In this document: positions 3,286 through 61,969 of the stretch, piece by piece
How the letters are laid out: each line of letters begins with the position of its first letter
How positions within the stretch are numbered: position 1 is the first letter of the stretch
Source of the DNA: a virus
Taxonomy: Duplodnaviria > Caudoviricetes
DNA length: 64,000 nucleotides
Direction: 5' to 3' (one strand)
IMG/VR virus record: IMGVR_UViG_3300033463_000075
Location: 18,164 to 82,163 of that record
Notes under the pieces: model-generated
What the model saw: the letters and a program-made list of their open reading frames with translations, nothing else
What the model was told of the DNA's origin: nothing
The model's database searches: none
Translations under genes and position numbers: made by a program

Positions 3286-3990
3286 TTAAATATTTACTAC
3301 AAGCTTGCTATTTATAGTATCAATTAGCTTTTCTGCAGAGGCTTTATCAATAGCTTTTATATCATCCAAAGCTTGTTGTATTTCATTGTCTTCTTCTACT
3401 TCTGCTTCTGGGATAAGTTGAAGTCTTATATAATCTTTTTGTTCATCTGTTAGTGGCTTTCTATATTCATCTTCTAACTTATCAATTCTCTTTTCTATAG
3501 CTTTAGCTATTTTGCCTTTTTTATACTTTTGTAGTTTATCTACAAACTTATTGTAAAGCTTTTTAATTGCAGCTCTGCCAGTCTTAGAAGTTAAGCACAC
3601 TCCTGCTGCAGTAAGCCCACTAAATAGAAGTGGCAATAACCAGCTTGTAGTTGGGTTTACAGCTATACCTAAAATACCTGCTACTAAAAATATATTTTCT
3701 TTAACAAATTCGGCGGCTCCTGCACTTGCAATTCCACCAGCAACTTTATCTATAAGTAGCTCAGCATCATCACCTAAAGCTTTATTAGTTTCTTTATCTT
3801 TAAGTGCAAGTAAATCAGCTTTCATATCAGACAACTTTTTAGCTTCAGTTAAAACAGTTTCTAAGCTATCTAAATTAGCCAATAATTCAGCATCACTTAT
3901 AGGTTTAATTTCTGCTTCTTCATTTATGAATTCAAGCAAAGAATAAACATCATTAAAGTTATCTAAGTTGTCATATAACTTTTTATCCAT
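3286..3990 (-). CDS. putative membrane-associated virion/internal protein
   Basis: Hydrophobic stretch IFLVAGILGIAV...LLPLLFSGLTAAGVCL; capsid-targeting-like N-terminus; TAA stop. Confidence 0.75.
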   Translation of the reverse strand: MDKKLYDNLDNFNDVYSLLEFINEEAEIKPISDAELLANLDSLETVLTEAKKLSDMKADLLALKDKETNKALGDDAELLIDKVAGGIASAGAAEFVKENIFLVAGILGIAVNPTTSWLLPLLFSGLTAAGVCLTSKTGRAAIKKLYNKFVDKLQKYKKGKIAKAIEKRIDKLEDEYRKPLTDEQKDYIRLQLIPEAEVEEDNEIQQALDDIKAIDKASAEKLIDTINSKLVVNI

Positions 3991-4874
3991 TATTCTTCCT
4001 CTTGCTCAAGTGGCTCAGTATAAACTAAGTCATGATCTTCTTTAACTTTTTCTAAAAATTCCTTATGAGCTATTTCTTCAGTTTTAATCTTTTCTAGTTG
4101 CTCTTTAACATTGGCATCTTCATCATCTAAAGCGGCAATAATTAAATCATAGCCATCAATAGCTTCTTGTTCATCAGCTGCTAAGAAGTCCATTTTATCT
4201 TCAAAGCTTTCTGGTATTTCTGGCTCTTCTTCAGCATCCTCAGTTAAGCTTTCTTTTGTAGCTACTGTAGCAGCTTGCACAGAATTTGCAAAGCCTTTAA
4301 CAGCGTCATTTATAGCTCCATTGTAAGCAGGGTCTTTAAGCATATCCATTATTTCTTTTTGTATCTCTTCTAAAGTCTTTTTTGGATTCTTCTTAAATAA
4401 GTCTTTTAATATTCCTTCATTAAGATCTTCATCAAGCCAGCCTCTACTCTTTAAGTATGCTTTTGTTTCTTCCATTGTTTTAAAGTCTTTATTGCAGCGT
4501 CTCCATTGGCCTTGGTCTCTTATTCAAGCACTATATGGGTTAGCAATTAAGCCACCACCATCATTGCATAGTATCTTGTATAAGCTTCCTTCTTCAACTA
4601 CATTTTTTAATTGGACATCTTCATTAATAGGCTCATCCATAATGCTATTGATTTGGAAGTTTGGGCCCAATTCTTTCTTGTAGTTAATAAGCATAGTTGT
4701 TATGTCATCAATGCAATCTGGATGTTCTTTTTTATAAGCAGCCTTAAATTCCTCTAATTCTTTTAAATTAGTAATACCAATATCATACGCAAGTCTTAAT
4801 GTATACTCACCTGCTGAAATTGGGCTCTCATTTAATGCTGTTAGTTCTTCATAAACACTGTTAAATTCTTTCAT
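3990..4874 (-). CDS. 294-aa protein with C-terminal ferritin-like (ExxH) helices, via 1 TGA
   Basis: TGA 4524-4526 joins track ORFs 4524..4874 and 3990..4475 in frame; DEQEAIDGY...KTEEIAH motif. Confidence 0.75.
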
Positions 4875-5391
4875 TTATATCTCCTTTCTTGTTTCTTGCA
4901 TAGCTATCAGTTTGTGTATGGCAATTTGGGCATAATATTTGCAAGTTATCTAAAGTATTGTTTTTCTCATTTCCATCTTTATGATGAAGCTGCAAAGTAA
5001 GCTCCTTGCCATTTCAAATAGGACCTTGACCACATTCTTCACATCTATAAGGTCTTCCAGTAGCTACTAATCTTCTTAAAGTATTTTGGTTATTTCTTGC
5101 CTGATCTAATGTATAATAATCAGCATCGGAAGTTTCTCTATTAAACTTACTAAAATCTAAACCAAATTCATTTCCAACAGCTTTTATAAGCTTAGCTGTT
5201 TTTTCTGCAATTTTATTTTGTCTTTCACCAATTAAAGTATAACCAAGATCTTTTGCAAGCTGATAAAAATATTTATAGCTGTTAACTCTATCTTGGTCTC
5301 ATTCACCACTAGCAAAAGCTCTTCTTGCTAAGCTGTCAGTTTCTTCTTCATATAATGAATCTAGCTCTTTAAATGTGTCTTTTAGCTCCAT
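4861..5391 (-). CDS. HNH endonuclease (176 aa, 2 TGA), absent from ORF track
   Basis: CEECGQGPI[TGA]NGKELTLQLHHKDGNEKNNTLDNLQILCPNCHTQT; SD AGGAG; TAA at 4861-4863. Confidence 0.85.
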
Positions 5392-5423
5392 TTAGTAACT
5401 CCTAAAAACTACTATCGTCGTAA

Positions 5424-5432
5424 TAATTTAGC
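5424..5432 (-). promoter_or_regulatory. GCTAAATTA putative late promoter
   Basis: Exact motif between terminator and ATG 5391. Confidence 0.7.
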
Positions 5433-5440
5433 AAAAAAAA

Positions 5441-5464
5441 TAGCCTTAATTTTCATTAAGACTA
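5441..5464 (-). terminator. intrinsic terminator
   Basis: TAGTCTTAAT/ATTAAGGCTA stem (one G-U) followed by T8 on minus strand. Confidence 0.75.
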
Positions 5465-5549
5465 TCTTTGTTAAACAAATTGCTTATTATATTCCTTTTA
5501 CTAGTTCTTGGGCTTATTATGAGCTCATACTAACCTTTCAGCAACTTGC

Positions 5550-5994: not shown

Positions 5995-5997
5995 AAT

Positions 5998-14653: not shown

Positions 14654-15424
14654 TTATTCTTCTGTTTTTTTAGTATATTCTATTGTAACATATATAGCTG
14701 CTACTCTTCCTTCAGATCCATTTCCATAAGTTATTAATTTGCTATCAGTATTATCAGTATGATAAATTACAGAAAAGTATTCGCCACTATTAGCGTAACC
14801 ATGATTTACAATATATCCATTTGTTGTTTTATAAAAAGTATGTGTAGGTTCAATTAAAACAGTATCTGGATTTAAGTCTACAATACTCTTTTCTTGATTA
14901 GCAGAATAATTTGTGCAAGCAATTTGAATTGTGCGTCTATATAATTTTTTTCCATCCAATCAAGTTCCAACTACTTCATCATCAGCAGAGTAGAGAGTAG
15001 TAGAAGGCTCTGTTGAAAGTTTTTGTAATTGTGCTACTATATCCGATAATGTTCTGTAGCTATTTATATCTCCTTCTAATAGTTTATTAGATTTTTTATT
15101 TGCTATTATTTTTGTTTCAAGTGGTATTGATAGCTCCTTAGCACTTATACTAAAGCAGTTAAGCATACCTTTTGGATCTGTATTTTCAGTAGCATTATCA
15201 ATGTAAAGCTTTCCAATTACTACAGGGCTATTTAATTGATTATCTTCAAAAGCAACATAGACAATATCATTTATTTTATAGCTATTGTAAAGCCCTGGTA
15301 TTGTAGAAATTGTAGCCTCGTTAATAACTGCACTAGTGCTTCCAGCTTGTTCAAAAATTGGTAAGCGTACTTGACAGATATTTGTATTATAATCTATATT
15401 TACTATTATTCCTTTTGTTATCAT
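14654..15424 (-). CDS. baseplate spike/gpV-like OB-fold protein with C-terminal W-x-DGK-x-x-YR module (256 aa, 1 TGA)
   Basis: TGA 14960 fuses two track ORFs: EVVGT[W]LDGKKLYRRTI; N-terminal CQVRLP...NDIVYVAF...PVVIG. Confidence 0.7.
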
Positions 15425-15432: not shown

Positions 15433-16731
15433 TTAATCAGCTATACGTGTTAAACCTAATGTAGTTCTATAGCCACTTTCACTAATGTCATCTTTTTGGC
15501 TTGTTATTAAGTATAAACCAGATGTTATATGTTTTTGTCCACCTGGAAAAATAACATTAAGCCTAACGTATGTCATAAGTGTGGCAGGTCTTAGCAAACC
15601 TTGAATTGTTACTGAAGCACTAATTGGATACTGTGTCATTCTTGACCATCATACTGCATCATTAATTTTTGTAGCATGTAATTCATTTTTTGAGGAAATT
15701 ACTGGTGCATATTCATCTTCCCAGATGCCTTTATTGTTTAAGCGTCTAACATAGCTCTCAGGGTTAATTTCATTTTGATAGTTGTAATATAATGAATAAT
15801 TCTCTTGGTCATTTACACTAAAGTTAGTTACTACAGTAGATGACATAGTTCCAATATCTATTTCATAAGCTTCTGCCTGTTTCTTAGCGCTTGTTACTCT
15901 TGTGACTTTAAAATATGGTCCACTTAGGTCTGACATATCACTATATAACTTATCATAAATTGATTCATCATGTATGGTTAATAAATAAATGTCTCTATAG
16001 CTATTTCCCTCTGAGGCACTTGCTGGCACCATGCAATTTACTAAATAAGTTATATAGTCTATTGGTGTAATATTAGTTTTTGTATCAAGCTGAACATATT
16101 TATCACTACCATCTATCAGTGTGCTTAATCTATCAACTGACATGCCTGAAAATAAATTTTGTAAACCGTAATGTGAATTAGAAAATACACGCTTTATTTC
16201 GTCACTTGGTTTTTCAAGTTTACCTTTTATATGATTAAAGGTATAGCTACCTTGTTGACCCAAGCTTGCTTTTGATACAGCAGACACTGTGTATGTTATA
16301 ACAGAGTTCATAGCCCCGCCATTTCCAAAGCTAAAGCCTTGTTTAACATCAGTAATAATAGCTTCTTCATCTTTATAAACATAACTTGGCATAGATGCAT
16401 CTCCATAGCTAAAAGTTATAGCACGAGTATTGCTCACAGATGAAAATACCTTTTCAAAAAAGTTAGGATCGTCTCCAACTCTAACCGGATAGTTTATAGT
16501 TAATGTATATTGGTTTACTTGACCATTTATTTTATTAATAGATAAGCTTTTTATATAATTAGGAAATTGAACATTATAAGCACTATAAAAGCCTGTGCTT
16601 GTTTCTTTATTTATTGCAGATTTGCTAAAGACACCAAAAGTAAAGCTACCAATAGTAACCTTAACTCAAGGAGCTTGAATACGCGCATTACTTGATAATA
16701 AGCTACGTCTATTTCCAGCTGTATCTATCAT
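15433..16731 (-). CDS. baseplate hub protein (gp27/gpD-like; 432 aa, 2 TGA)
   Basis: ATG 16731 overlaps upstream TAA; TGA 16666 and 15649 in frame; C-terminal SGLYLIT...GYRTTL. Confidence 0.65.
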
Positions 16732-17057
16732 TATCTAAGGTCTCCAAAACTAATAGAAGATATACTTGGTATTTTTATAATATCAAATTTATTCTTAAGG
16801 GGTACTAGTGAATCTTGAATATCATTAAAATAAGCAATAATTCACCAATATGTTGGGTTATTATAATATTTTAAGGCTAGGCTATCTAGTGTATCTTCTT
16901 GCACAACTTTGTGTGCAACCCAAGGTGTATCCTTATCTAAATTTTGTCCAATACCAAAAATATCTTTTTCATCTTGTTTGTTGTAATAATAAGGCACACC
17001 AGTATATCGGCATACATAATCAAAACTATTATATCTTTTATTTGTTAATACATCCAT
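16731..17057 (-). CDS. LysM-like baseplate wedge protein (gp53/gpX-like; 108 aa, 1 TGA)
   Basis: EDTLDSLALKYYNNPTYW[TGA]IIAYFNDI...KIP. Confidence 0.8.
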
Positions 17058-17669: not shown

Positions 17670-19066
17670 TAGCTATCTCCTTTATCACTTTTATAAATAT
17701 TTGTATATAAGTCTTCGCTAGCTATAGTATGTCAATTATTATTAGCATTACCTATTTGTTTATTTTTAAATAAAGTTTCAACATCTTTATCTATATATCC
17801 AAGTATATCATAATTGTTGCTAGTTGTATTATTTATATTTGCAGTATTCATATAGCTATAAATAATTGGCATCATGGTGTTACTTCAAATGCCTTTATAT
17901 GGGCTTGTTAATAAATTATTTATTTCTAAAACTTTTTGAGCACGTTCTATATTATCTGGTAACTTATCAAGCGGTGTAATAGCATTACCAATTAGGTATT
18001 CTATCAAACGGTCAGCAAATGGGTAGCTCTCAGTAGTATTTAGTTCAAGTAATTGTAATGATGTTATATATTTATAGTTAGCATTCTCATTTAAATATGG
18101 CTTCTCGATATTATTTATCGCATAATTTGGGTAAGATTTGTACTTATTTTTAGACACATTTATTGTATCATTTCAACCAATATAATTGCCTTCTAAAATA
18201 GTAATACTTGAATTTACACCTACAGGCACTTTAATAAACATTTTTAAGTTTAGCTCATTTTGAGCTAAGTTATTTAAGAATGTATCCCTATCTTCCACAT
18301 TCTTAGTAAGTAAATCTATAGTAGCAAGGTTATCATATAAAAATGGTCTATTAAAGTTTGTGCTATTTAATTTTACATAAGTTGTAGCTGGCAAGTCTTT
18401 TAAGGCTTGATTTGTGCCTTGATATTTACCATATATTCCGCAGCATATTTCAATAGCCAAGTCAGAGTCAATAGCTATTGTATATTCTTTAAATAGTTTT
18501 ATTGGTAGCATATAAATCTTATACTTAGTATCAGATCCGCTGAAGGTACTTATACTGATATTATTTTTTATTATATTCAATGATAAATTACTACAAATTC
18601 TGTTACTAAAGCAATTATATAATGGCATTAAATTTATATGATTATAATCTCTTTGAAAGCGTAAGTAATCACCTAAGTATTCATGTGTATATGAATCATA
18701 TATATTATTTTTTATTTCAAGGTTCTTTGTATAATTTGGCATGCGCTCATTATATTCATAAAAATGTGTATGAGTTGATAGCTTTTTACTACTTCAGCCC
18801 TTTGGCACCCACTCTCAATTATTAGCAGAGGTCTCTCTATACTCTTCTATACGCCCATTTCTTATATAAGGCACATACATTAAGACTTCATTAGCTTTAT
18901 TCACATCATCTTTTGTAGTTAGGCCACTATCCCCAATTTTATGATATACTAATGTTTTTATTGGTGGCTCATTTTCAACAAATACTCTAACTTTTGGCAA
19001 ATTAAAAGAATGAAGTAATTGTTTTATGTAGCCTGTTAATATATGGTTGCTATTAAATTTAAACAT
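17669..19066 (-). CDS. hypothetical tail/baseplate protein (465 aa, 5 TGA)
   Basis: TGAs 18815, 18794, 18173, 17885, 17732 fuse three track ORFs; TAA 17669. Confidence 0.75.
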
Positions 19067-19080
19067 GTTAAATACCTCTA

Positions 19081-21039
19081 TTATACATTATTTATTCTTC
19101 AGCCTACTGTTTGTGCCATTGATAATATATTTTTGATGTCATCAATTAATTCATGAACAGACCATATACTATCATTAATAGTTTTTGCGGTTATTTCAGC
19201 TTCATCTGGATTTTCACCAGTAAGCTCAAGTTTTTTCTCTTCAGCGGCACCAAATGTTGCAGCTTCAACTTCACCGCCACCGCCACCTATATAGACACTA
19301 CCAGAAGTGCCTGATCCCAATACAGATACTGAACCGCCAGATAGTCCTAAAGCATTAAGAATTTGTTTTCCAGAAACACCACCCATGCCTGCGCCAGACG
19401 TTCCAGCTCCAAGCATAGTTGCTACACCTTGCAATAAGCTAGCACTCATTGCACCAGCTTGCATTATTTGTGCAACAGTTGTTTTTAGATCAACACCACT
19501 ACCTAAAGCATATACTGTAGGAATTGCAATACCGCCTACCAAATCTTGTAGCATATTTGCTGCCATCATTGTAGCATATAAAGCTGGATTATTAGCAAGC
19601 CCTGCTGAGATAGTGTAGGAAAAGTTTTCTTTAGCAGTGCTCATTAGCTCACCAATGCTAGTTCTGCCATACATACTGCCTGCCATTTTATAAAGGTTGT
19701 CAATAAAACCACCATAATTACCAGTAGTTTTTCTAGTGCCAGATAATTGGGAAGCACTAATATTACCAATAGCTTTTAAGTCAGAGGCTGATAAGCCAAA
19801 TACTTTAGCTAATTGTTGACGAGTAACTAAACTAGATGATGAGCCATTTAATTCAGCTAAATAACCAACAACATTTTCAAGCAATAGGTTAGTATCATCG
19901 GCACTTAAGCTATTATTTAAAATATCACCTAAAGATAAACCTGCTCTATTTGCAGCCATAATTAGTAGATTTGTAGCTCCACCACCGGTTAGACCTGAAA
20001 TATCACCAGCAGATAGTTTACCCAAAGCACTAGCAATTCCTTGAACACCCTCTTGAGACATACCTACAGAATACATAGAGCCCATTCATTTTTGAACTTG
20101 GAATTCAAAGGCAGTAGCTTGCGTAGCTCCCATTAAAGCTGAAGCTTCGTAGATGCTTGATCTAATATTAGCAGCAGCGTCTGTCATGTATTCAGTAGTA
20201 GAGTACATAGAGTTCAAGAACTCATTTAATGCAGCTTCCATACCTAAACGGCCAGCTGTTGTATCTGCTTGTTGTATACGAATTAACTTAATTAAGCTCG
20301 AATCAAAAGAATTAAAAGTAGTTGCAATTTTATCTTTTAATGTTTCCATTGCAGCTCTTTGCTCAACATTAAATGCAATACCTTTACTAACCATAGTAGA
20401 GATATTATTCATAAATGTTTCTTGTGAAATAAGAGGAGAAACTCCAGCTAAGCCAGTAATATCTTTACTAAAGTTTCTAAAATAAGAACCCATAAAGGTC
20501 TTATTATTAGTAGAACCATATAAACGTGTATCTATAGCTGATTGATACTTGGCTATTTGGTCGGCTTTACTCATTACTTGTTTAGACATATCAGCTATGC
20601 TATTAACAAGTGATGTTAGACCAATAGTTAAAGCATCTTTGGTGCCATAGGTATCTACATAAGCTTTAGCTTTTGAAAGCTTACCATCTAAGCCACGTTC
20701 TTTTAAATCATCAAGTTTATCTTGAAGGTCTTGTGCTTTTTTAATATTTTCTTGTGCTTGCTTAGTTTTAGCAGTTAACTTGTCAAGTTCTTTATTTAGT
20801 TTGTCTACTTCTTTTTTGTCTTTAGCAGCTTTAGCATCAGCTATTTGCTGTTCTAATTTTAGACGCTTTTTAAATGAGTTTTGTTCTATTTTGTATTGTT
20901 TTTGAGCAGTTTCATAGTTTATTTTTTCTCTTTCCTTAGCAAGATCATTCTCAAGCTTTTTACGAGCTTCAGATTCTTCTGTAAGGCTTTTTCCTAAATA
21001 CTTTGTAAGTTCATTATACTGCTCTGAATAGTAACTCAT
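19081..21039 (-). CDS. tape measure protein (652 aa, 2 TGA)
   Basis: N-terminal coiled coil, Ala/Gly/Ser-rich C-terminus, lies after chaperone; TGA 20086 (QVQK[W]MGS) and 19099; TAA 19081. Confidence 0.8.
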
Positions 21040-21047: not shown

Positions 21048-21278
21048 CTACTTATTACCTAAATTTTGTTGTTTAATCTGTTCTATACGCTTATTACTTT
21101 CTTCAAATTTTTTATTTATTTCATCTATCAAGTATATTCTTTCTTGGTAAGATATATCTAATACATCTGTATAACTCATATGTAAGTTATCACTTATGAA
21201 TCAGCATTCTTTTAATATTTCACGGTATCTCTTTGGCCCATATGCTTTACCATCTTTAGATATTTGTGGGTCTAAAAA
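21048..21278 (-). CDS. tail chaperone extension (GT/gp51-like), probably reached by frameshift
   Basis: +1 frame relative to chaperone, open through one TGA (21201) to TAG 21048; ...EC[W]FISDNLHMSYTDVLDISYQERIYLID. Confidence 0.55.
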
Positions 21279-22026
21279 ACTCGGGCCCGAAGCGAAAAAA
21301 TGTTTTGAATTCTTCGCCACATTCTTTACAAGTTAATGTAACAGATGTGTCTAAGCCGAAACAAGTATTTAGCTTATCAACAGTATTTAGTATCTTTAGC
21401 ATATCCATAGCAGGTAAGCTATTAATAAATGTTTCTAACTTGCTTGAATTTAGCTTTTCTCCATCAACTAGATCAATAGTTGCAAGCATTTTAGCCATAG
21501 GCTCAAAGTCAATTTCGGCATCTTTAAATCTAGCTTTAAATTCTTTAACCTTAATAGCTTGCTCATCAAGCATTCTTGGTGTTTGACACTTAAGTGTTAC
21601 TATATGACCACTTTTTGGTAAGGTAAGCTGTTTTAATTCATTGTACTCAGCTATATCAAAGTCCTTTAGTGTAAGTTCTTCAAGGTGGGCTTCACCCTCA
21701 ATTAATGACCCACAATTAGTGCAAATAGCTGACATCTTATATAAATCGCCATAAGATACAATTCTTAGCTTATGTAATAAAAATTCATAATCAGCTAAAG
21801 CCATATCATAAACATGCACTTTTGGCTTTTCTATCATGCAACCTTCAATAATATCAGCTAATAGCTTATATGGCATTGTAGATGGGCCAGTTCTTTTCAT
21901 TTCATCCCTAGCAGTCATGCTTCTTAACTCAACGTGGCTATCTACAGGTACATCATAGATTAAACCTTTTGAAGGTAGCTCATAGCCTTCTGCAATAGTA
22001 TAATTTTGTTGTCTTTCCATTTCCAT
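21256..22026 (-). CDS. tail assembly chaperone (T4 gp26-like)
   Basis: LPSKG...CTNC...LPKSG...CKEC...FFRP; located between tube and tape measure. Confidence 0.75.
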   Translation of the reverse strand: MEMERQQNYTIAEGYELPSKGLIYDVPVDSHVELRSMTARDEMKRTGPSTMPYKLLADIIEGCMIEKPKVHVYDMALADYEFLLHKLRIVSYGDLYKMSAICTNCGSLIEGEAHLEELTLKDFDIAEYNELKQLTLPKSGHIVTLKCQTPRMLDEQAIKVKEFKARFKDAEIDFEPMAKMLATIDLVDGEKLNSSKLETFINSLPAMDMLKILNTVDKLNTCFGLDTSVTLTCKECGEEFKTFFRFGPEFFRPTNI

Positions 22027-32078: not shown

Positions 32079-32091
32079 ATTAAATTATACA

Positions 32092-32970: not shown

Positions 32971-32979
32971 TATATTCCT

Positions 32980-43985: not shown

Positions 43986-44909
43986 TTACTTTTTATATGC
44001 TTCTCATTGATTAGTGCCTGGCACTCTATGAAAAGCATGCCTTGGAAAATCTATTTTAGCTAATTTTTCACAGCCATTAAATATTTCAACAGTATTAGCA
44101 AGCATTGACATTTGTGCATCTGAGCCAAAGCTTACACTAACTAAGTTTTTACAGTTAGCAAAAGCATTTTTTTCAATAACTTGTACTGAAGCAGGTATAT
44201 GTATATCTATCAAGTTTGTTTTAGCAAAAGCCTCTGTGCCTATCGCCTCAAGAACAGAATCAGCTTCAAAATTAAGCCTTGTTAGGTCTTTACACTCAAA
44301 GAAACTACAAATGCCTATAACTCCAGTTGCTTTTGGTATTGTAAGCTCTACAAGACCACTATTCTTAAATGCTTCGCTGTCAATTACTCTAAGTGCATTT
44401 GGTAGCTTGATAGTTTTTAACGCCCCACAGTACTGAAAAGCATTACGCCCTATCTCATCCATTTTATCTGGTAAATCTACAGCTTTTAATTGCTCACAAA
44501 AGCTAAAAGTATATGTAGGCAATACTGTTAGTTGTGTTTCGCTAAGGTCAGCATGTTTAAGTTCTGAGCAGTAATGAAAAACTTGATCACCTAAGCTATT
44601 TATTGTGCTAGGCATAATCATATATTGTAATTTACTACATTGTTGGAAAGCGCCTGTACCTATCGTAGTCACACCAGTTCTTAATATAGCTCTTTGTAAG
44701 TTTGAAGCAAAAGCAAATGCAAAGCGACCTATATCAGTGCCATTATAATAAGTATCAAAATATTTGATGTCAAGATTATTTTTCAAAGCATCATCAGCTA
44801 CTCCTGTGCAGCCGCGAGGTAGTGAAAGTCTACCAGTTGGGCTCTTATAATAAGTTAGCTTACCACTACTATTTAATCTTATAACTTCAGCTGGTTGTGT
44901 GTTAGGCAT
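43986..44909 (-). CDS. BspA-type LRR protein A (307 aa, 1 TGA)
   Basis: Track ORF extended through TGA 44004 to TAA 43986. Confidence 0.9.
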
Positions 44910-45060: not shown

Positions 45061-46512
45061 TTATTTATTCCATACATAGGTAGCTTGTCCACAGTCATAG
45101 ACTTCAACAAAGTTATGTGTTAGCATTAGCTCCTCATTGCTTGTGCCTGTGCCATAACAACCAAATGTTTTTCCAAGCAAGGCATCAAATCCACGCTTAA
45201 ATAAAAGCTTGTCTGTAATATGGTCTTGTAATTTAATATTATACCAATGTCTACCTATAGCTCTACTAATTTTCTTAAAGTCAAGGTTAATATAAATATT
45301 GCCTTCAAACTTGCTGAGATCACAGTAGCTTACTATTGAATCTGGATTATAATTTTCAACAAAGTAGTTAAATAGCTTTTCGCTGCCACCAACTACTATA
45401 GCACTTCCACAAAGTCTAATCAATTCCCATTGATATTTTTTGCTGTAACGTGGCTTGCCAAATGTCATAAGCATAACTATTTCATCATTATAAATAAGAG
45501 CCAGTGCAACATCAGATTTTGTATATCCTTGAAAATGGTATTTATTTAAATAGTCAGCCTCAGCTTGTGCACTAATAAGCTTTATTGTGCACTTTCTAGC
45601 ACCTATAACTGGTTTTTTCTTCAAGAATGTATTTATAATTTTATCTTGGTCATCCCAGTCCCAAATATGAATACACTGATAGCCATTTCTAACTGCAATA
45701 TCTGTTTTATCAGCATGATAATATTTATCAATTCCATGGTCTTTGCACCAAGGGCTCCAAGTAGCATTATGTGTAGCAGTAGGGTCTATCTCAATTAAAA
45801 AGTTTTCGACTTTAAAATCGTAATAGCGGCCTTCAAGTAAAAATTCCTTTTCGTATGCTATATTATTTGCTTGTAATTTAGCTTCAAAATTAATATTAGC
45901 TTTTGAGTTCTTACTTCCATTACTTCGTTTAGCATTTTCACTTGTCCAATAATTTTCACAGCCGTATTTTTCTAAGAAAGTCTCTTTTAAGGATTCTTTA
46001 ATACTATCTTTTACAATATCAGACTTAGAAGCCCAATCAGTCCCATATTTAAGCTTTACCGTTTGTTTAATTTTTTCTACTTGATTTTTATAAGATGTTT
46101 GTAAATCGCCACTATTTTCAATTCTTGTTTGAAGATTTTTGTAAATATTATTTTTTGAGCCATATTTAGCTTCATTTGATCTACGCACTTCTGTCATTAA
46201 GTCTTGACGCTTAAATTGGTTATCTACTCCATACTTTTCTGTATTAGTTTTAGCACGCTTAGCTTGATTATTATAATTGCTATCACCATATCTATCAAGT
46301 TTAACCTTTTTAATGTTAGCTGTATGTAAATCTTTTGGTTTGTTTATTTCATAATACCTTAAGATTCTTGATAACATACTTGTTGTGATATTAAAATAAG
46401 CAGCTGTATCTGGACCAGATTTATTTTCAGTAATGTAAATCTTATAAAGCTCGTCTTTAGCTACCATATGTAAATAATCTTCAAATAATAATCTTTTCAT
46501 TGTATTATCCAC
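45061..46512 (-). mobile_element. free-standing homing endonuclease-like gene downstream of major capsid gene
   Basis: EKYG-type repeats; YYDFKVENFLIEID PD-(D/E)xK-like core; GARKC...HFQG...TFGKPR...WELIR C-terminal region; start may be ATG 46500. Confidence 0.75.
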
Positions 46513-46626: not shown

Positions 46627-47946
46627 CTAAGCAACGATCTTACCAGCAACTAGTAATAATTCGTTGATTAAAGCCTTAGCATACCATGTGCTAAATCCTT
46701 GTGCTAAACCGCCATCTGGTGTTCCAAGTAATTGTGTTGGAACTATAGCCATATATGGAGCATAAACACCAGCAGATGACATTAAGTCATTACCATTTAG
46801 ACCGAAGAAGAATTCTCCAGAACCTAATAGTGGAGATACATAGATGTTTAAACCATCAAGTTCACCAACCTTGTAAGGACCGTTCATCTTAACATTCTTT
46901 ACAGCTGTGAATCCGTTAACGAATCTTAAAACTGGAAGAACGTCAGCAGCGATTACCATGTAGTTTGGATGGAATTTCTTTGTTCTGTTGTAGATGATAG
47001 CCTTAGCTTTTTCAACGATTTCAAGGAAACCATTGTAGTGTTCAAACTTGCTAACGCCGATAGGTAATGTCTTTGACCAGATTAATTCTTCATTAGCTTC
47101 ACCAGCACCCTTATATAACATATCAACGATTTCTGTATCGATTTCATATGCTAATTCACCACAAGCTTGTTCAGCGATTTGCTTATCAAGTGTGAAACCA
47201 TAGTCTGTCTTAGCTTGGAAAGCTGTAATTTGATCATATCTAACAGCGATACGTCTTGGTTCAGCTACCAAAGCAATTCTTTCCATCTTTGGTCCAATTG
47301 TTGGGATGTCTTGAGCTGGAACATGTTCCATTTGGAATTCTTCAGAGAAGTAAGCTAACTTATCGCCAGCAGCTAAGCCTTCAACCTTACCGCCAACTAC
47401 GTTAGCGTAGATTGTTTCACCATTTCTGATGATCTTAGCATCATACTTTTCTTCTGTCTTAGGATCTATGAATCTCTTGATAGCCATTGGAGTTAAAGCT
47501 GGTTCACCATCAGAACCGATAGTTTCGATGATTACTTGAGATGTGTAGTTCATTCTAGCTTCATTCATGTCTCCAAGACCGAATACGCCGTTAAATAAGT
47601 CGCCTTTCTTTACGTCGCCCTTATCTGTCTTAGCAACATACTTTAAGTAAGCGATAGATCCAGAATAAGATGTCATTGGGTGAACGATAACTAAATCGTT
47701 AGCGATTAATGAAGGAACAGCAATGTTTGTTAGGTTTAAACAGAATTTCTTCCAGTCGCCTAAGTCAGCTCTTTCTGTAGCCATTGTGTTCATAGATTCA
47801 GTAATCCATCTGTTTGTATTATCTAACAATACAGCTGTAGCTAGCTTTGTGTTGTTAGAAATTTGCTTGCCGTCATAGTTGTTAGCAATATAAGCTTCAG
47901 CAACCTTAATTTGACGTCCATAAGTTTCTAATAGATTTTGTCTCAT
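46627..47946 (-). CDS. major capsid protein (T4 gp23-like)
   Basis: VPSLIANDLVIVHPMT...QIAEQACGELAYEIDTEIV...GVYAPYM; TAG stop; no TGA. Confidence 0.92.
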   Translation of the reverse strand: MRQNLLETYGRQIKVAEAYIANNYDGKQISNNTKLATAVLLDNTNRWITESMNTMATERADLGDWKKFCLNLTNIAVPSLIANDLVIVHPMTSYSGSIAYLKYVAKTDKGDVKKGDLFNGVFGLGDMNEARMNYTSQVIIETIGSDGEPALTPMAIKRFIDPKTEEKYDAKIIRNGETIYANVVGGKVEGLAAGDKLAYFSEEFQMEHVPAQDIPTIGPKMERIALVAEPRRIAVRYDQITAFQAKTDYGFTLDKQIAEQACGELAYEIDTEIVDMLYKGAGEANEELIWSKTLPIGVSKFEHYNGFLEIVEKAKAIIYNRTKKFHPNYMVIAADVLPVLRFVNGFTAVKNVKMNGPYKVGELDGLNIYVSPLLGSGEFFFGLNGNDLMSSAGVYAPYMAIVPTQLLGTPDGGLAQGFSTWYAKALINELLLVAGKIVA

Positions 47947-47984: not shown

Positions 47985-49820
47985 TTATTTTTTCAAACCA
48001 GCACCTTCTAATACCCAGTCAGCAATTTCATCTTCTTGAGATTTAGTTGCAACTTGAGTAGGAGCCTTTGCTTCAGTAATCTTGATACCACTCATACCAA
48101 AAGGTAATCTTGAGAATCCAACACTTTCATTAAGCATTTCATCACATAGTGAATCAATTTCCTTTATTGAATACTTCTCAGAAAGTCTGCTCTTAATATC
48201 AGAAGCTCTAACTCCAAGCATTTCTGCTTTTGAATCGATGTATTTATTTAATGTTTCTTCAAGCTTAGCTTTATATTGTCTTGCAACAGATATACTATCA
48301 TTTGCTTTTTGTTTAGCTGTTGCTAATTGCTCAGATAGACTAGCTTTTTCTTCATCAAATTCTTTTTGCATTACATCAATCTTTTCTGTTAATAGCTTAA
48401 TCTTTCCATTATTTGCAGAATTCAAGCTTTCATTCAAAGACTTAGAATTGCTCATTTGACCTTCTAGCTCATTGATTCTTGCATCTTTTTGAGCTAATTG
48501 TTCTTGCAATTGTTTTGCTTCTTTTTCTATCGATTGTGATTTTGCAGCTACACTGCTAACCCTTGCGAAGGCCATTTTATATTTATTAAGTTCTTCTTCT
48601 AATGATTTAACCTTAGTATCACTAACTGTCTTTTCTTTATTCAAAGACTTAATTTGGTCCTCTAAAGTAGCTTTTTGACGAATTGCTTCCTTCAAGCTAT
48701 CAAATAGCTTAACATCTTCTGCTCCATTATCAATGGCTTCTTCGTCTGCTGGTTGCTCTTCCTCAGCTACAACAGGTTCTTCTATATCTGCATTATCAGT
48801 ATCTTCTTCGTTTGTTTCTGCCTCAGCTTCTTCAGTAGGTAAGATTTCTTCAACCTTTTCAGCAACTACTTCATCAACCTTTTCAGCAATTTCCTCAGCT
48901 TGTTCTTCTGTAGGTTCAACAACTTCTTGAACAGCATTTGCAACTGCTTCTGCTGTATCTTGAATTGTCTCAACTGCTTCTTCGGCAGAAATTTGTGTAT
49001 CTTCAGCTGGAGCTTCTGTTTCTACAGCTTCTTCTTCAGCTGTTGGCTCAACGATAGGTTCGATGTCAGCTTCAGCTGCAGGAATTTCTTCCTCAACGTT
49101 TTCTTCACCTTCATCTTCTATTAAAGGAACTTTATCAGGATCTGTTTCTGCAACAAATTGAATCTTTTCCTCAACAGGTTCTTCTTCGTCAAGCTTAATA
49201 TCTAAATTATCTAATGTATCTTTCATAACTAATTTATCTTCTTCATTAGCTTCATTTAAAGATTCAGTTAAAGCTTTCTTCATAGATACTTGCTTATTAT
49301 CCAAAGATTCGCACATAGCAAGTCTTGCTCTCTTCATAGCTGGTGTTCCAACAATATCCCATGTTTCCAAGAAGAATGTATCTGGGTCAACGGAATTGTC
49401 AGGCATAACATCACCAGATCCACGTGAGCTAATACCAGGTGTAAATCCATAGTCGCAAAGAATCTTTAATAGCTTTCCATTAGGAGTGTCTAAAATGTCT
49501 ACATATGCATATAAGTCATCATCAACAATTTTTGGCATCTCAGGAATACAAGCACAAACAAGCTTCATATCAGTTTCTTCTCTATCAGCTGGGTGTCCAA
49601 GCTCAAGGAATAAACTCTTATTAGCAACCTTTTCTTTAAAGATGTCATCAGCTAATGCCTTTTCCCATAGCTCTCTATTATAAAGTCTTCCGTTTCTTGT
49701 AGATTCCTTGCAAGTAGCGATAGGACCATATAATCTGCCAAGGATATGTCTCTTAGCTTTCTCTTCATCTGATAATGGTTGCATTTGTAGTGCTTCCAAA
49801 ATTTTGTTATTATTTGTCAT
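47985..49820 (-). CDS. prohead protease (gp21-like) fused to acidic linker and coiled-coil scaffold (gp22-like)
   Basis: NGRLY...ELGHP...DTPNG...GISSRGSG...TWDIVGTPA; C-terminal coiled coil. Confidence 0.9.
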   Translation of the reverse strand: MTNNNKILEALQMQPLSDEEKAKRHILGRLYGPIATCKESTRNGRLYNRELWEKALADDIFKEKVANKSLFLELGHPADREETDMKLVCACIPEMPKIVDDDLYAYVDILDTPNGKLLKILCDYGFTPGISSRGSGDVMPDNSVDPDTFFLETWDIVGTPAMKRARLAMCESLDNKQVSMKKALTESLNEANEEDKLVMKDTLDNLDIKLDEEEPVEEKIQFVAETDPDKVPLIEDEGEENVEEEIPAAEADIEPIVEPTAEEEAVETEAPAEDTQISAEEAVETIQDTAEAVANAVQEVVEPTEEQAEEIAEKVDEVVAEKVEEILPTEEAEAETNEEDTDNADIEEPVVAEEEQPADEEAIDNGAEDVKLFDSLKEAIRQKATLEDQIKSLNKEKTVSDTKVKSLEEELNKYKMAFARVSSVAAKSQSIEKEAKQLQEQLAQKDARINELEGQMSNSKSLNESLNSANNGKIKLLTEKIDVMQKEFDEEKASLSEQLATAKQKANDSISVARQYKAKLEETLNKYIDSKAEMLGVRASDIKSRLSEKYSIKEIDSLCDEMLNESVGFSRLPFGMSGIKITEAKAPTQVATKSQEDEIADWVLEGAGLKK

Positions 49821-50863: not shown

Positions 50864-52813
50864 TTAATTATTAACTGTAAAATCTATTCCCTTAATATCT
50901 TCTGGCTTTGGTAGGTCCTCATCAGAATTTTCTAATAGGTCTAACTTCTTCTCTAAACCGTCTAATTGTAAGCTTTCATTAGTTGGTATAGGAGGAAGCT
51001 CTATGTCCTCAGCTCCACCAGCTGGCTCTTCTTTTGGAGCATTAGGTGGAACAGGTGCTCCACCCTCTTCTTCACCTTCTGGTGGGTTATTCTTTTCTTC
51101 TTCTTTAGCAGCTTTGATAGCTTCAATTTCTTCATCAATAATAGCTTGCATTTCGTCGCCATAATTCAATGTGCCTAATTGATACTTCAATAGTTTTAAT
51201 CTTCTTTCTCTGTCTTCAACATCTGTAAATAAAGCATTCATACTGCTAATAGCATTTAGTCTATCTGTTAAGTCTTTTCTATAGTCTAGCATTTCTTGTG
51301 TTATAGGTTGTTGCATCTTTAACACAAAGTTATTTAGATAGCTTACTAAGCCATTATTGATAAGCATTAAGTTAATAGCTTCTGTAACAGCTTGAGTAAT
51401 AGCATTTTGAACCATCTTAACATTTTTACCAAATTGAGATGAAATAATTGTTAAAGCTGTACCGCCGTTGAAACCACCACCTTCATCTGTGAAACCAAAG
51501 TATTGTTTTGGAACACCAAAAGCAGCATAGAATTTATCATTCCACCACTCAATATCTGCAATACCTTTAACTTCAGTATCACCGCCAACAGCACTAATAG
51601 TAATTGCTCCTTGACCATTATGTGTTGTATAATAAACATTATTTTCAACTGGACCTGGGTTAATAAATTCAGAGGCACCACCATCTGTTCTACCTTCGCC
51701 AGTAACTAGGGCTGTCTTTTGTTCTATCATAGACTTAACATATCTTAATGTAGCTTTTGCCTTTTCTTTAGACATATCACCAACATCAATAGCTACAAGT
51801 CTAATAATACTTGAACGTGTAACTCTATTTAAGATAGCAGCATTTTCAAGTAATGTCTTTTCTCTTCAAGTTTTATATGAATCATATAGAATAGATTTAC
51901 CACGCTTAACTGTATAGTCCATACTATTTAGGTCAGAGTCATAATCTGAGTTGTTCTTATAGATTTGAACAGTTTCTGGGAATCTTGTATAGTTGTCATC
52001 TAAGTAAGCATGTACATAATCATCAGCTTGGTGAACAATAATATCATTACTCTTCATTCTATAATTAGCTACTGTAATACCTGAAGATGCACTTACTACT
52101 TCTGAATAATCATAGCCTAAGCTCTTGGTATTAGGAACCTCAATGAAACCATATGTTTTGCCGTATTTAGTAAGCTCAAACATTGTACTTGGGTCTGGCA
52201 CCATTTCTACATAATAGCTATACTTATCGTTGTTATTGTGCATTGATAAGATAATATTTTCGTCTAAGCCTTGTGCTCTTGCTGTTTCTTTATCAAGCTC
52301 TTCATTTAGGATGTCTCTTGCACCCTTTGTTTTTGGTTGGCCAAATAAATCATCTTCATAGTCTGATTCTCTAAAAAGCTTTAGATAAACGTCGCCATAT
52401 TTTAATAAACAATAAGTCCAACCATAAATGTATTTATCTACATTCATAATATTTAATAAGTAGTTTACATACTTACTAACTTTTGGATCTTTTGCTTCAC
52501 ACCATATAATATGACCGTTATCAGCTGCTTCACAAACTGACCCTGCAAATGTCTTTAATAACATAGCTACTGCAGAATCTCTTCCCATTGTATCAATTAG
52601 CTCATAAACTTGTTCTCTGCCATTAGATATAGTAGTAAACTTTTCAAGTGCTGCAAAATCAATATTTGTTCCGCCTAGCACTTCATCAACTAATTGCTTA
52701 GATAAGTCAACGTCAGCTTTTACCGTTTTATCCAATACAGTAGACTTAATTTGGCTTCCTGCTAATGGGTTTGGTGATTTGGCTCTTGGTTTTCTAACCT
52801 TTTCATCTGCCAT
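50864..52813 (-). CDS. portal protein (T4 gp20-like; 649 aa, 1 TGA)
   Basis: TGA 51866 fuses track ORFs: YDSYKT[W]REKTLLENA...RLVAIDVGDM; AFGVPKQYF; follows terminase. Confidence 0.88.
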
Positions 52814-52841: not shown

Positions 52842-54893
52842 TTATCCTAAAAATAATATTCCATCTGATATATCTGCTAAGTCCTGTGCTAAATCAGGAT
52901 CATCGTCATCATCAAATAGTCTATCAGTTTCGTTTTTGTCTAACTCTTGATATATTTTAGCTAATTCGTTTTGGAAATCAACTATTATTTGCTGCTTTTT
53001 TTGTGCTGCTGATTGCTCAGAGTTTACTTCAAGCATAGCATCTAAATTATTAGCTACATTGATAGTTGCAGTACATAAATCAGCATGTTGTGATGCACTC
53101 CATAAAGAACCTACTACAGCATCAATTTGGTCCTTTGAACCAGATTTACCAGCGTCAGGGTGTTCAATATGACCATCAGATAGCTTTTCAAGTCCTAAAA
53201 CTTCTTCTGTTAAGAAGTCACACTTATGATAAACGTCCATACGTCTGTCTGTCATAGTAGTCTTAAAATAAGCATATTGGTTTTGTTGTCTTGTTTTAGC
53301 ATCAACGCGGTCCACAGATACAGTCTTTACTTCAAAGCCATCTGTTTTTAACTCTTGTTGCATCATTGGTCCACCCCAAGTATCGCAAGATATACCTTTA
53401 ATATTAAAGCCTTGGTCTCTTAGCCATCTAATAAAGTTTCTATGCTTTGCAAAGCTAATTGAGAAACCCTTAGGAGCTTTGATAGATACTGAGAAAGCTA
53501 CTCTATAGAAAAGCTCTCTTGAGATGTCTTCACCTTCAATACTTTCAGATTTACCTTTTAATCAAGTACCTGCAATACCTGTTTTGTCTCCTTTACCTAA
53601 ACTTCCAGACGACATGTCGAGATGGATAAATAAAGGTTTTGCTTTCCATTCGTCAGGCACCTTACTTAGGTCAAAGAAATTCGCATATTGTGCAAAGTCA
53701 TCAGGACTATTTCCAACCTCAATAATTTCTTTTGTGAATGGGTTTTCATAATCAGCTTTAATAGCATTCCAAGAAATACCTGAAATATACTTAGTAGCAG
53801 AAGCAGTTGAAATACCTGCAATATCTGTTAAAGCTAATTCAATGTTTGTTTTGAAAGCTTCTAAGTATGCTTCTGTAGCTGGAACTGAAATAATCCTGTT
53901 ATATCCCTTTTCTCTATATGTTGCTTCATCAACACCATCTGGGATAAGTTCATTTGGTAGGAATCTATCACCTACGGCTACTTTAAACCAAGTGCCTGTT
54001 TGTTTTCTTACATCGACTACCCATTGTGGTTCATCAATGATTAATGTTGTCTTTGATTCATTTTTCTTCTTAGTTTCAATATAGTCATCTAAGAAAGATT
54101 GGTCAGATGCTTTAGAAGAAGCTATAATATTTAGTGTTGGTAAAAAGTTTCCTCTTAAGAATCTTGATGCCATACGGGCGTCAACTTGAGAAATAATTTT
54201 CTTTAATTTTGCCTTTAATCTTTCAACGTCAGCACTTCTGGCGTCGAAGTTAACTTCGTCTGAGAAATTACAGAATAGCGCACGACCTACAATTTGATTG
54301 TTGCTTGAAGCACATACAAACTCAATATGCTTTTCTGGGACAAACATCATATTGCTTGTTCCGTGCATCTCACCATGTGCCATAAACCAGTCACTTGATA
54401 AAACTAATTGATTTAGCTTATCAAGAGCAACGCCCTTAGCGTTTTCAATAGTGATGTTCATTAAAGATATTGTGATTTTATCGATAGGTTGCATTCCATA
54501 ATATAAATATGGATCTTTTAGACAAAGCAATCTATATAACATATAAAGCTGACAAATAACAGCCATTGTAGATTTACCAATACCAATAGACCCTGTAAGT
54601 ATTAGAGTGTTATAAGCAGTTGTTGTATTCGTTGGAAATATCTTTTTAAGGGTGTCTTCTCAGTAAGGGAATAATGTAAATCTGCCTTCTGGGTCATATA
54701 AGCCATTTCCAAGATAACGTTTATCATGTAAAAAAGTGTGTATATCAACTGGGACTTCTTCTCAGTCGGCATACTTCATTTCTTCTAAAGTCTCAGATGA
54801 GCCAGCTTTAGCATATTCGCCTAAAATCTTTAATACTTCAGCTCTTTCTTCTGGGCTTAAATTGTCTAAAATTTCTTGACTAATCCTTTCCAT
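52842..54893 (-). CDS. terminase large subunit (683 aa, 3 TGA)
   Basis: Walker A LTGSIGIGKST; FSDEVNF; IHLDMSSG...DKTGIAG; KDQIDA; TGA 54762, 54660, 53562. Confidence 0.92.
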
Positions 54894-54929: not shown

Positions 54930-55949
54930 CTAATTTTCCTTATTTTCTTCCTTTTTTATTCAGCTTAATATATTATTTTTACTATAAAATACTTTATAAT
55001 TTAATTTATTTGTTAAAGCTTTTGTCTGTTTTCTTATATCTAAATCTGTTCAGGTATATATAGCATTTGTATAATATTTAGATGTTAAAGCTTTTTCTGA
55101 CCATACAGCAAGTTGTTTTTTACAAATATCTGATTCTGGGTTAAATGGCATACCACCATGTGTTCAAGTAATGTTCAATTCAATAAATAAATCTAGTGAC
55201 TTTATATAAAAATCACACTCAAATGGATAACGTGTATCAGTGCTGTAATGTCAAATTACATCTGTGCTGCCATACTTTTCTTGTAGCAGTCTGTAAACTT
55301 CTGCCTCCAACTTTGAAGTATTAAATGTTTTATTTAGCTTTTGTGTTTTATATTTTTTAGCTAACCAACTTTGAGCATTAGCTTTAAGTTCTGTCTTTCT
55401 TTTATGGCTAGCTGAATATGATTTAGCTCCATATTTTTGCAAGCATGTTTCTGAAGCTTTAACTTTATACTCAGATGTCTTTGTATAGCTATTTACGCCA
55501 TATTTTTCTAAACAAGTATTTTTAATTTTTTGTAGGGTAGCTTTGTCCTTTGTTGGGTTATCTACACCAAATTTATCAATCATAGTTTGTTTTAAATTTT
55601 TTAGCATTATAGCTGTTTTTTCCTCTTGAGTATGCTTGGTTATGTTATACTCTACAAAAATTTCATATAAGTGTTTTTCTTTTAAATGAAATTTGCTACA
55701 AGTACTTTTTATATTGTTATCTTTATAAAAATTAATAATAGCTAACTTATCACTTTCTGTAAGATTTGTTTTTCTACTTTGTCCACGACCTCAATTAGCT
55801 GGGTGTCGGCTAATATTATGCTCTAATAGTATTCTATTATAGTTTGGTCTCGATAAACCAAATTTTTGCATAGTACTATTATCACTGTGTGTCACTTGAT
55901 AATTAATTAGTTCGTTTATTTCTTCAGCGTTTAAAACTTTACGCCTCAT
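54930..55949 (-). mobile_element. free-standing homing endonuclease-like gene (339 aa, 5 TGA)
   Basis: EKYGV repeats; YPFECDFYIKSLDLFIELNIT[W]THGG; AIYT[W]TDLD; TGA 55791, 55251, 55164, 55050, 54960; TAG 54930. Confidence 0.8.
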
Positions 55950-56760
55950 CTTTATCCTCACTATCACCAGTATTGGCTGTCATTGTGCCCTTTCCAGTAG
56001 CAGGGTTTTTATTTGAGCCCTTTTGTATTTTTCCTCTGTTCTGAGCCCAGTTATTTATTGTTTCAATAGTATGTCTATCGCTCATAAGGTCTGCATCTTC
56101 TGGAGCTATGCCTTCTTCTACAGCAATATCAGCAGTAACACCATATAGCTTTGGAAAGATTACCTTTAAAAATATATCGTGCATATTTTCATCCAAATAA
56201 AAAATGTAATTCTTTATACAAGAAGCAACCTTCATTAAGAAGTCTTGGTTAGAAAGCACTAAAAGAATATGCTTGCAACCTCTGCCCTTGTCATCTCTTG
56301 GGTTTCTAATTCCAGCCCCAGGACCTGGGTCTTGTGCTGTGTCATCTACAGATACATTATTAACTATATTTCAGTGAGCATAGTTAAACTTATAGTCATC
56401 ACAAGTGCACTTTGTATAAATGTTAGCTGTATTAAAAATCTTTGTTAAAGCTTGTATAATAGTTCTAAATTCAAGCTTATATTTATTATTTTTAATATTT
56501 CTAGCTATTTCAGCACATACACCTTCCATTTTAACTGTAACAGTATAGCTATCAGTCTCGCCTACAACTGGGACATCAAATTGCAATATATCTTGTTTGA
56601 AAAATTTGTTCATGTCCATGGAATTGTAGCTTTTAACTTGATTAGCAATCTTAGAATAGCGTTTTCTTTCAAATCTATTCTTACCACGAGACTTGTCTTT
56701 GTAGTCGCCTACATTTCTTGACTTATTTATTAAGGTTGTACGTGTATCTTCTAATAACAT
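55939..56760 (-). CDS. SWIM-type zinc finger protein (273 aa, 1 TGA)
   Basis: CTCDDYKFNYAH[W]...RNPRDDKGRGCKHIL; start ATG 56760 with SD AGGAG. Confidence 0.75.
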
Positions 56761-61362: not shown

Positions 61363-61395
61363 TATTATTTTCTCCTTAACTTGAGCAACGTCATA

Positions 61396-61404
61396 TAATT
61401 TAGC
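61396..61404 (-). promoter_or_regulatory. GCTAAATTA putative late promoter
   Basis: Exact motif upstream of ATG 61362. Confidence 0.7.
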
Positions 61405-61430
61405 AAAAAACTATTCAAATAATAAAAATA

Positions 61431-61454
61431 AAGAGACCTTAGTTAAGGTCTCTT
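61431..61454 (-). terminator. intrinsic terminator
   Basis: Perfect 10-bp stem AAGAGACCTT/AAGGTCTCTT. Confidence 0.8.
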
Positions 61455-61474
61455 CTTATATAGCTTAAATTAGG

Positions 61475-61969
61475 TTAGTTAAAAAGATTAAAAGCTTCTT
61501 GTAAGTCTATTTTTTCATCTTCATCAGCATCTTTTGGTGTTGGTTCATCAAAGTCTGTGAAATATTCAAATGGTTCTTCGACCTTAGCTGGCTCTTCAGC
61601 TTTTTCTTCAACTTCTACTTCACCCTTATCTTCATCTGACTTAACTTCAATTTCTGTTTCTGCATCTTCATCATAGTTTTTAACTTCAATGTTGACATTA
61701 ACATCTTCTTTTAGGGCTTTGTCTTCATCTTCTTCTGGGAATTCAACATAGTCTTTAGCTTCTGCAAAAGCTTCCAATTGGCCAATAGCAATTAAATAGC
61801 TGTCTGCTAAAGCTTGTAGTGTGTCTTCAACTTTCTTTGCGCCTTTATAAGTATTATTAATAGCTTCAATGTCAGCTTTAATATTGCCAACTTCAGCTCA
61901 GCCTCTACTAATTAAGTCTGTTAATAAACTTACAGGTAATGTTTCTTTTGATTCTTTTAATTCTTCCAT
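61475..61969 (-). CDS. acidic hypothetical protein (164 aa, 1 TGA)
   Basis: ATG 61969 with SD GGAG; TGA 61898 (ISRG[W]AEVG). Confidence 0.75.

Follow-up and report, generated by a model that had tools for sequence, protein, structure and literature searches.

TGA as a likely second tryptophan codon in a large T4-like phage of the rumen or gut

Which amino acid, if any, does a phage place at TGA when its genes keep running through this codon? The question is raised by a stretch of 64,000 nt of viral DNA (henceforth the window) that covers positions 18164-82163 of the IMG/VR record IMGVR_UViG_3300033463_000075, a linear contig of 82,163 bp with a CheckV completeness of 41%. An earlier note on this stretch, made from its letters alone, had proposed that TGA is read as tryptophan (Trp) in positions 3990-61969, i.e., that the phage uses genetic code 4. 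We have followed up this proposal with the 82-kb contig that holds the window (G000) and its metagenomic relatives (G001, G006, G008-G012, and G016-G018), and we consider it very likely that the contig stems from a virulent-type, T4-like large phage of ca. 200-240 kb from rumen or gut in which TGA serves as a second Trp codon.

Reading frames through TGA and the residue at these codons

Under translation table 4, the minus strand between positions 3990 and 61969 is tiled by 53 genes with little space between them. A total of 91 in-frame TGA codons are spread over 33 of these genes, close to the ca. 90 that had been counted by hand in the earlier note. Across the window, where the minus strand carries almost all genes, replacing table 11 by table 4 reduced the number of open reading frames (ORFs) from 94 to 61, increased their coverage from 82.5% to 95.2%, and raised the median ORF length from 133 to 256 aa; for positions 3990-61969, coverage was 82% with table 11 and 96% with table 4. 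This comparison of coding density had been suggested earlier as a check, and the same procedure brought no gain under table 4 for 80-kb stretches of two standard-code relatives. A chance reading is excluded because the frames stay open past the TGAs (the median is 168 codons, and 90 of the 113 TGAs in the whole contig are followed by 50 or more open codons) even though off-frame TAA and TAG together make up 7.7-8.7% of codons.

What these frames say about gene ends needs some care. That no gene ends in TGA, as had been noted earlier, follows by construction once table 4 is applied (46 genes end in TAA and 7 in TAG), and TGA might still double as a terminator, but the remark gains substance from the tight spacing of the genes (-29 to +135 nt) and from the 11-23% of stops that are TGA in standard-code relatives. 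For TGAs that lie 6-11 codons from a gene end, the sense reading rests on paralog comparison where this covers them and is otherwise unproven. The related statement that standard annotation destroys most of the window went too far with respect to coverage, of which 82% remains, but it is correct for gene integrity, given that 33 of the 53 genes here are broken under table 11, which also hides the 954-aa fusion described below, an array of leucine-rich repeat (LRR) proteins, and most virion genes.

Four independent comparisons (with homologs, with standard-code relatives, with G001, and between LRR paralogs) concur that the residue at these TGAs is Trp, as had been proposed. The best single test gene encodes a fusion of FrhB-like, polysaccharide pyruvyltransferase, and GT8-like parts (954 aa; 32980-35844, minus strand), which contains 15 TGA and 4 TGG codons and shows single Pfam stretches that run across TGAs. 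Homolog columns at the TGA positions were enriched for Trp when we inspected them as the earlier note had advised, and the conserved ones are W in 118, 118, 103, and 101 of the 119 listed homologs. All seven motifs quoted in that note were found, with TGA at each bracketed Trp: TIGDF[W]G and GSDQI[W] in the fusion gene; [W]HDQ both there and in the gene at 31230-32078; NPTYW[W]II in the gene at 16731-17057, where a TGG is followed by a TGA; GT[W]LDGK in the gene at 14654-15424; IT[W]THG in the gene at 54930-55967; and PI[W]NG in an HNH endonuclease gene at 4861-5391.

The comparison with standard-code relatives used tblastn searches of all contig proteins, with an X at each TGA, against G008 and G010 translated with table 11. 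Sites aligned to TGA were TGG-encoded W at 13 of 20 positions (65%) in G008 and at 23 of 30 (77%) in G010, which is similar to the 64% and 63%, respectively, found for sites aligned to TGG and far from the 0.3-0.4% seen at other sites. Taken over both genomes, TGG stands at 36 of the 50 TGA-aligned sites, followed by codons for F and Y. At closer range, 15 ortholog pairs shared with G001 (mean identity of 87% at the aa level) comprise 26 TGG/TGG, 18 TGA/TGA, and 16 TGA/TGG pairs of Trp codons, while TGA faces a non-Trp codon just once. The same interchange was found within the window, in an array of BspA-type LRR paralogs with LRR_5 matches (35857-44909, minus strand), whose C-cap Trp had been described as TGG in some copies and TGA in others. 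Indeed, the copy at 40203-41144 ends in ...KRwIKVDN with TGA at the Trp (lowercase) and its neighbor at 41144-42064 in ...RKWVKVDK with TGG. Counting TGA as Trp also gives a normal Trp content of 1.03%, compared to 0.59% from TGG only. As far as its sequence tells, TGA in this contig is thus read as Trp according to code 4.

One TGA of the fusion gene was considered as a possible exception. Codons 630-631 (window 33952-33957, in the context GCA TGA ATG) might have been an ancestral stop-start junction where the pyruvyltransferase part meets the GT8 part, but we rejected this idea because the Trp of codon 630 sits in an N-terminal motif of GT8 that is conserved in fused homologs; two fused GT8 homologs carry Leu instead of Met after the equivalent Trp. 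The counterpart of the fusion in G001 is 630 aa long and ends in TAG, which implies that fused and unfused forms coexist in this lineage. The full-length 954-aa product is already present in a public protein collection, which means that at least one public gene-calling pipeline read TGA as sense for the 82-kb contig. Any downstream analysis of this contig requires code 4, and that collection already handles this.

Uneven use of TGA among genes

Borges et al. (preprint 2021, 10.1101/2021.08.26.457843) gave a detailed account of TGA-to-Trp phages and reported phage suppressors, early genes in standard coding, recoded late genes, and close relatives that use the standard code. In our contig, TGA accounts for 113 of 263 Trp codons (43%) and is distributed among genes with strong heterogeneity (G = 191 versus a permutation mean of 97 +/- 11.5, with 0 of 5000 permutations reaching the observed value). 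The flanking genes at window positions 1-3990 (minus strand) are free of TGA, and such genes continue into the 18 kb to the left of the window; the two TGA-free stretches contain 24 and 11 Trp codons, none of them TGA. CoaE/PPAT, NrdD, NrdG, and an SNF2 helicase are encoded in these 18 kb; NrdD (10 TGG), NrdG, CoaE/PPAT, and neighboring genes, which represent nucleotide metabolism and other functions that are presumably early, are free of TGA.

Within the recoded block, the genes for the major capsid protein (gp23-like; 46627-47946; Gp23, E = 3.9e-28; 0 TGA and 4 TGG), the prohead protease/scaffold (47985-49820; phrog_207, E = 2.8e-34, plus Peptidase_S77), the tail sheath (22987-24495), the gp19-like tail tube (22359-22967), and the baseplate hub (21256-22026; T4_baseplate above the Pfam cut-off) lack TGA as well, adding up to 0 TGA among 13 Trp codons (P = 7e-4) for this set with the most abundant virion proteins. 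All five lie on the minus strand, and the assignments of sheath and tube are backed by PHROG matches while remaining below the Pfam cut-off. TGA is common in LRR paralogs and in genes for low-copy virion proteins such as portal, terminase, and baseplate, but above all in genes for glycan modification. It is densest at 31230-35844, where two glycosyltransferase-like genes (GT8 and a weak GT25 match; 31230-32970, minus strand; 8 and 4 TGAs) and the pyruvyltransferase fusion together contain 27 TGA and 7 TGG codons.

The portal gene (gp20-like; 50864-52813, minus strand; 1 TGA and 4 TGG) bears out its earlier name with a Portal_T4 match (E = 7.8e-34) that forms one stretch from residue 105 to 529 across the TGA at codon 316. 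The large terminase named alongside it is only probable (52842-54893, minus strand; 3 TGA and 8 TGG), with a weak phrog_2 match (E = 8e-6) and orthologs that adjoin the portal gene in relatives, and for the names "tape measure" and "baseplate wedge" we found only sub-threshold gp25-like and gp5-OB-like matches.

The split between early and late coding of Borges et al. is therefore present here, but a second gradient is superimposed on it that looks like avoidance of TGA in the most highly expressed genes. The capsid gene is free of TGA in all four recoded genomes that we compared (G000, G001, G009, and G011), even where TGA makes up 62% (G009) or 54% (G011) of Trp codons; its orthologs in the latter two have 0 TGA and 4 TGG, and so does the syntenic 434-aa gene of G001 (17787-19091). 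The orthologs of sheath, tube, and protease in G009 and G011 carry TGAs, with two to three in each protease gene. It is possible, though less likely than not, that recoding in this T4-like clade is graded by expression level, not split simply into early and late genes, with sheath, tube, and protease gaining TGAs solely in the most heavily recoded members. If this were true, the clade would form a natural series for the stepwise capture of a stop codon.

A cost of recoding would follow if suppression competes with release factor 2 (RF2) of the host, which would be most harmful in the most highly expressed gene, and the TGA-free capsid gene in all four recoded genomes suggests such costly competition. 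The base after sense TGA in the whole contig is T in 10% of cases compared to 27% after TGG (Fisher p = 0.001), with A enriched; G011 shares the depletion of T (p = 0.0016), whereas G009, G001, and G018 do not show it. Only if a T behind UGA strongly favors termination could this depletion likewise reflect competition with host RF2.

A probable decoder for TGA and competing readings

How could such a phage translate its genes? In the scheme that we favor, the host would use the standard code and its machinery would translate the early genes, after which the phage would provide a tRNA-Trp-type opal suppressor with anticodon UCA, in some relatives alongside a tryptophanyl-tRNA synthetase (TrpRS) of its own, and TGA-bearing genes would be completed only once this decoder has appeared. 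Codons would drift from TGG to TGA under AT pressure, which fits the guanine-cytosine (GC) content of 29-34% in TGA-recoded members compared to 36-49% in standard-code members. The earlier note had recommended a search for tRNA-Trp(UCA), TrpRS, or release factor 1 (RF1); none of them turned up in the 82-kb contig with its 41% completeness, while complete recoded relatives carry tRNA(UCA), with or without TrpRS.

Three complete and recoded relatives, G009, G011 (which has terminal repeats), and G012, each encode a large tRNA array with tRNA-Trp(CCA) as well as an extra tRNA(UCA), while the tRNA arrays of the standard-code genomes G006, G008, and G010 contain no UCA tRNA according to ARAGORN. 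The UCA tRNAs of these recoded relatives resemble tRNA-Trp in their acceptor stem; their discriminator is G, and their anticodon loop matches CUCCAAA except at position 34. A TrpRS (TIGR00233; 318 and 304 bits, no internal stops) was found in G009 and G011 only, where it has the UCA tRNA on one side and the tRNA array on the other; it was not detected in G001, G012, G016, G017, or G018. In both genomes, the TrpRS gene is adjoined by a truncated gene for a Lon-like protease/AAA protein that has no internal stops either (L119:192-2487 in G009 and L120:1336-3814 in G011 for this region).

Walking outward from contig ends led to G018, which overlaps with the end of G001 (81-89% nt identity) and extends ca. 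57 kb further; it belongs to the same lineage as G001 but comes from another sample and strain. G018 is TGA-recoded, with a coverage that rises from 80.5% under table 11 to 89.5% under table 4. Besides 26 tRNAs, it encodes a perfect cloverleaf of 95 nt and class-II shape with anticodon UCA (G018:55693-55787, or L245:13693-13788 on the minus strand), which scores 49 bits with RF00005, was missed by ARAGORN, and has a long variable arm of 6 bp and no encoded CCA. This tRNA is homologous to the 96-nt tRNA(UCA) of G012 (L109:2900-2995). Because the contig is only 41% complete and complete recoded relatives carry tRNA(UCA), the decoder of its phage is probably a phage-borne opal suppressor in the unsequenced part of the genome, where we would expect it within a large tRNA array or next to one, given its location in those relatives.

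Several observations weigh against this account. ARAGORN, RF00005 at E <= 10, and a full Rfam scan found no tRNA in the 82-kb contig, and searches of the contig for class Ib aminoacyl-tRNA synthetases, including TrpRS, and for an RF-1 domain were negative as well, the latter also in five complete relatives. The 76-kb relative G001 yielded neither a tRNA nor TrpRS, and G000 and G001 contain no tRNA at the spots that correspond by synteny to the tRNA modules in G011 and G012. For the UCA tRNA of G018, the combination of C33, long variable arm, and C discriminator means that charging with Trp is not assured. In addition, a model in which late genes are recoded does not by itself explain the TGA-free capsid, sheath, and tube genes, and hints about the host are weak: NrdD points to Bacteroidales or Christensenellaceae and the portal to phages of Bacillota. 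Further searches also gave no lead, with no theta or HDV-like ribozyme or group I intron found by Rfam in the window or contig, and with a pattern scan for UCA tRNAs yielding 36 viral contigs, none of which shares a high-identity overlap with G000 or G001.

TGA could be read as Trp without any phage-encoded UCA suppressor if a near-cognate tRNA-Trp(CCA) with a modification or a 4-bp anticodon stem, a suppressor of the host, or the suppressor of a co-infecting phage did the decoding. We consider this unlikely. The ca. 123 kb of this lineage in G000 and G001 that lack a decoder, including the two places syntenic with tRNA modules of relatives, would fit such a route, and so would published surveys that report suppressors in only 35-61% of recoded genomes (35% of code-4 genomes in Borges et al.); tRNA-Trp with a 4-bp anticodon stem is the subject of a 2026 NAR paper. 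Yet each of the three complete recoded relatives has a tRNA(UCA), the same-lineage contig G018 has its UCA cloverleaf beside a tRNA array, and 59% of the genome is missing from the contig.

It is quite improbable that the host itself uses code 4, e.g., as a Mycoplasma-like or other bacterium with UGA as Trp, and that the phage merely mirrors it with no decoder of its own. Such a host would account for the absence of a suppressor tRNA from the 82-kb contig and 76-kb G001 as well as for the low GC content of 32.5% in the window, but phages of recoded hosts have in-frame TGAs in ca. 90% of their genes according to Borges et al., whereas here 33 of the 53 genes within the block have them and hardly any gene beyond it does. 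TGA makes up just 43% of Trp codons and is spread very unevenly, standard-code relatives occur within the same portal clade, and the tRNA(UCA) and TrpRS of relatives would be redundant in a code-4 host. The nearest cellular homologs of NrdD, with 48-51% identity to proteins of metagenome-assembled genomes from rumen Prevotella, Paludibacteraceae, and Christensenellaceae, are ambiguous as a host hint but come from standard-code rumen Bacteroidales and Clostridia.

A reading of TGA as Gly, as in the code 25 of phages of Absconditabacteria/Gracilibacteria that occur in gut and oral samples, or as another non-Trp residue is extremely improbable: among the 15 TGA columns of the fusion protein, Gly comes first in a single, poorly covered one (G 3, W 2, and S 2 in 7 rows), and code 25 would lead us to expect TGA in nearly all genes, not in 33 of 53, while the standard-code relatives have TGG at most aligned sites and TGA interchanges with TGG in the close relative G001. 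It is barely conceivable that the TGAs are real stops within pseudogenes, split genes, or assembly errors, since 91 of 91 sites keep the frame for long distances against a background of ca. 8% off-frame TAA/TAG, single Pfam domain matches cross them, and independent assemblies from other samples show TGA or TGG at the same sites.

Relatives, known recoded phages, and gene content

The phage in which we propose TGA as a second Trp codon has a T4-like morphogenetic module with matches to Portal_T4, Gp23, Peptidase_S77, and T4_baseplate above the Pfam cut-off. Closely related contigs originate from sheep-rumen and similar samples. Judged by its portal gene, the window is a fragment of a phage of ca. 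200-240 kb because metagenomic relatives found with the portal reach 200-237 kb at 91-100% completeness. A DNA-level search of the portal-terminase region against GenBank phages gave no match. At the protein level, the nearest cultured portals, with 24-30% aa identity over 70-77% of the protein, are those of the Bacillota T4-like myophages Streptococcus phage vB_SagM-GXN1, Bacillus phage SP-15, and Listeria phage LIS04 (genomes of 176-222 kb), which share the gp20, gp23, gp19, and S77 module as very distant relatives. To our knowledge, no recoding has been reported for any of these three.

The wider group found by portal or NrdD combines different genetic codes. Four portal loci (L019, L020, L022, and L023) each carry one in-frame TAG, and G017, a 214-kb relative with terminal repeats that was found via its NrdD gene, encodes two tRNA(CUA) (L247:607-681 and L248:337-434), so that this group probably includes TAG-recoded (code 15) members next to those with code 11 and code 4. 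In a quick portal tree, for which the TGA label was taken from the portal gene alone, TGA-bearing portals appear at several positions; parsimony needs four changes of which well-supported branches force one, and multiple origins of recoding are therefore suggested but not shown. The mix of code 11, code 4, and probable code 15 likewise suggests repeated switches. These coexisting relatives with standard, TGA-recoded, and probably TAG-recoded genomes might serve as comparative material for the spread of recoding.

The phenomenon as such is already known, because Borges et al. describe these phages in detail, including ca. 200-kb clades and genomes from cattle. The earlier remark that TGA-to-Trp gut phages had been reported is thus well founded, with a literature that extends to large cattle and rumen phages, and our phage adds one member to this set. 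According to a 2026 survey, 8.75% of rumen jumbo phages use alternative codes. What our analysis contributes beyond this are modest additions, i.e., a capsid gene that stays free of TGA throughout the recoded relatives, a UCA tRNA of class-II-like shape, and the mixture of codes in the wider group.

The closest parallels are the "Jade" phages of Borges et al., which are likewise large (ca. 200-210 kb for Jade and Sapphire), use TGA as Trp, and have a standard-coded code-change module of tRNA, TrpRS, and RF1 as well as recoded structural modules spread over the genome. Compared by description, G009 and G011 share tRNA(UCA) and TrpRS with them, but RF1 was not found in the relatives that we searched and the 82-kb contig itself shows no code-change module. 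The "Agate" phages from cattle, pig, and tortoise in the same study also combine code 4, close standard-code relatives, and a notable homing endonuclease. Their genomes are smaller at 127-154 kb, and their homing endonuclease is among the most recoded genes, whereas the one at 45061-46512 in our window is free of TGA and two others contain TGAs. The TAG-to-Gln crAss-like and Lak phages follow the same logic of a phage suppressor tRNA with standard early and recoded late genes, but they use another stop codon, another amino acid, and unrelated virion modules; TAG-suppressor tRNAs like theirs also occur in G017. Mycoplasmatales/Entomoplasmatales and reduced endosymbionts share UGA as Trp, read by tRNA-Trp(UCA). 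Their code 4 is organism-wide, with RF2 lost and TGA as the dominant Trp codon, whereas its use here is partial, gene-specific, and confined to a virus.

The endonuclease gene at 45061-46512 (minus strand; homing/HNH type; phrog_3339, E = 2.7e-54; 9 TGG and 0 TGA) probably arrived recently as a mobile element with standard coding. Several genes for homing/HNH endonucleases or DUF7487 proteins occur at different places in the contig (window 45061-46512, 54930-55967, and 4861-5391; contig 2521-3510) and differ in coding, with one having 9 TGG and 0 TGA and another 5 TGA and 2 TGG; the gene at 4861-5391 (minus strand), identified by an HNH Pfam match, has two TGAs, one of them in the PI[W]NG motif. 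The LRR array and glycan-modification region (window 35857-44909) does not align to G001 at the DNA level, while elsewhere the two genomes are 85-88% identical, and it is a hypervariable cassette within a conserved structural block.

Left of the window, two stretches of the contig (12153-13692 and 15732-16289) are unusually long and have neither convincing ORFs nor an Rfam match. They flank a gene for a 574-aa protein of unknown family at contig positions 14007-15731, which carries 11 TGA and 1 TGG codons. An unusually Trp-rich gene was seen in G018 (G018:28720-30627), where a product of 635 aa includes 39 Trp codons (22 TGA and 17 TGG), i.e., ca. 6% Trp.

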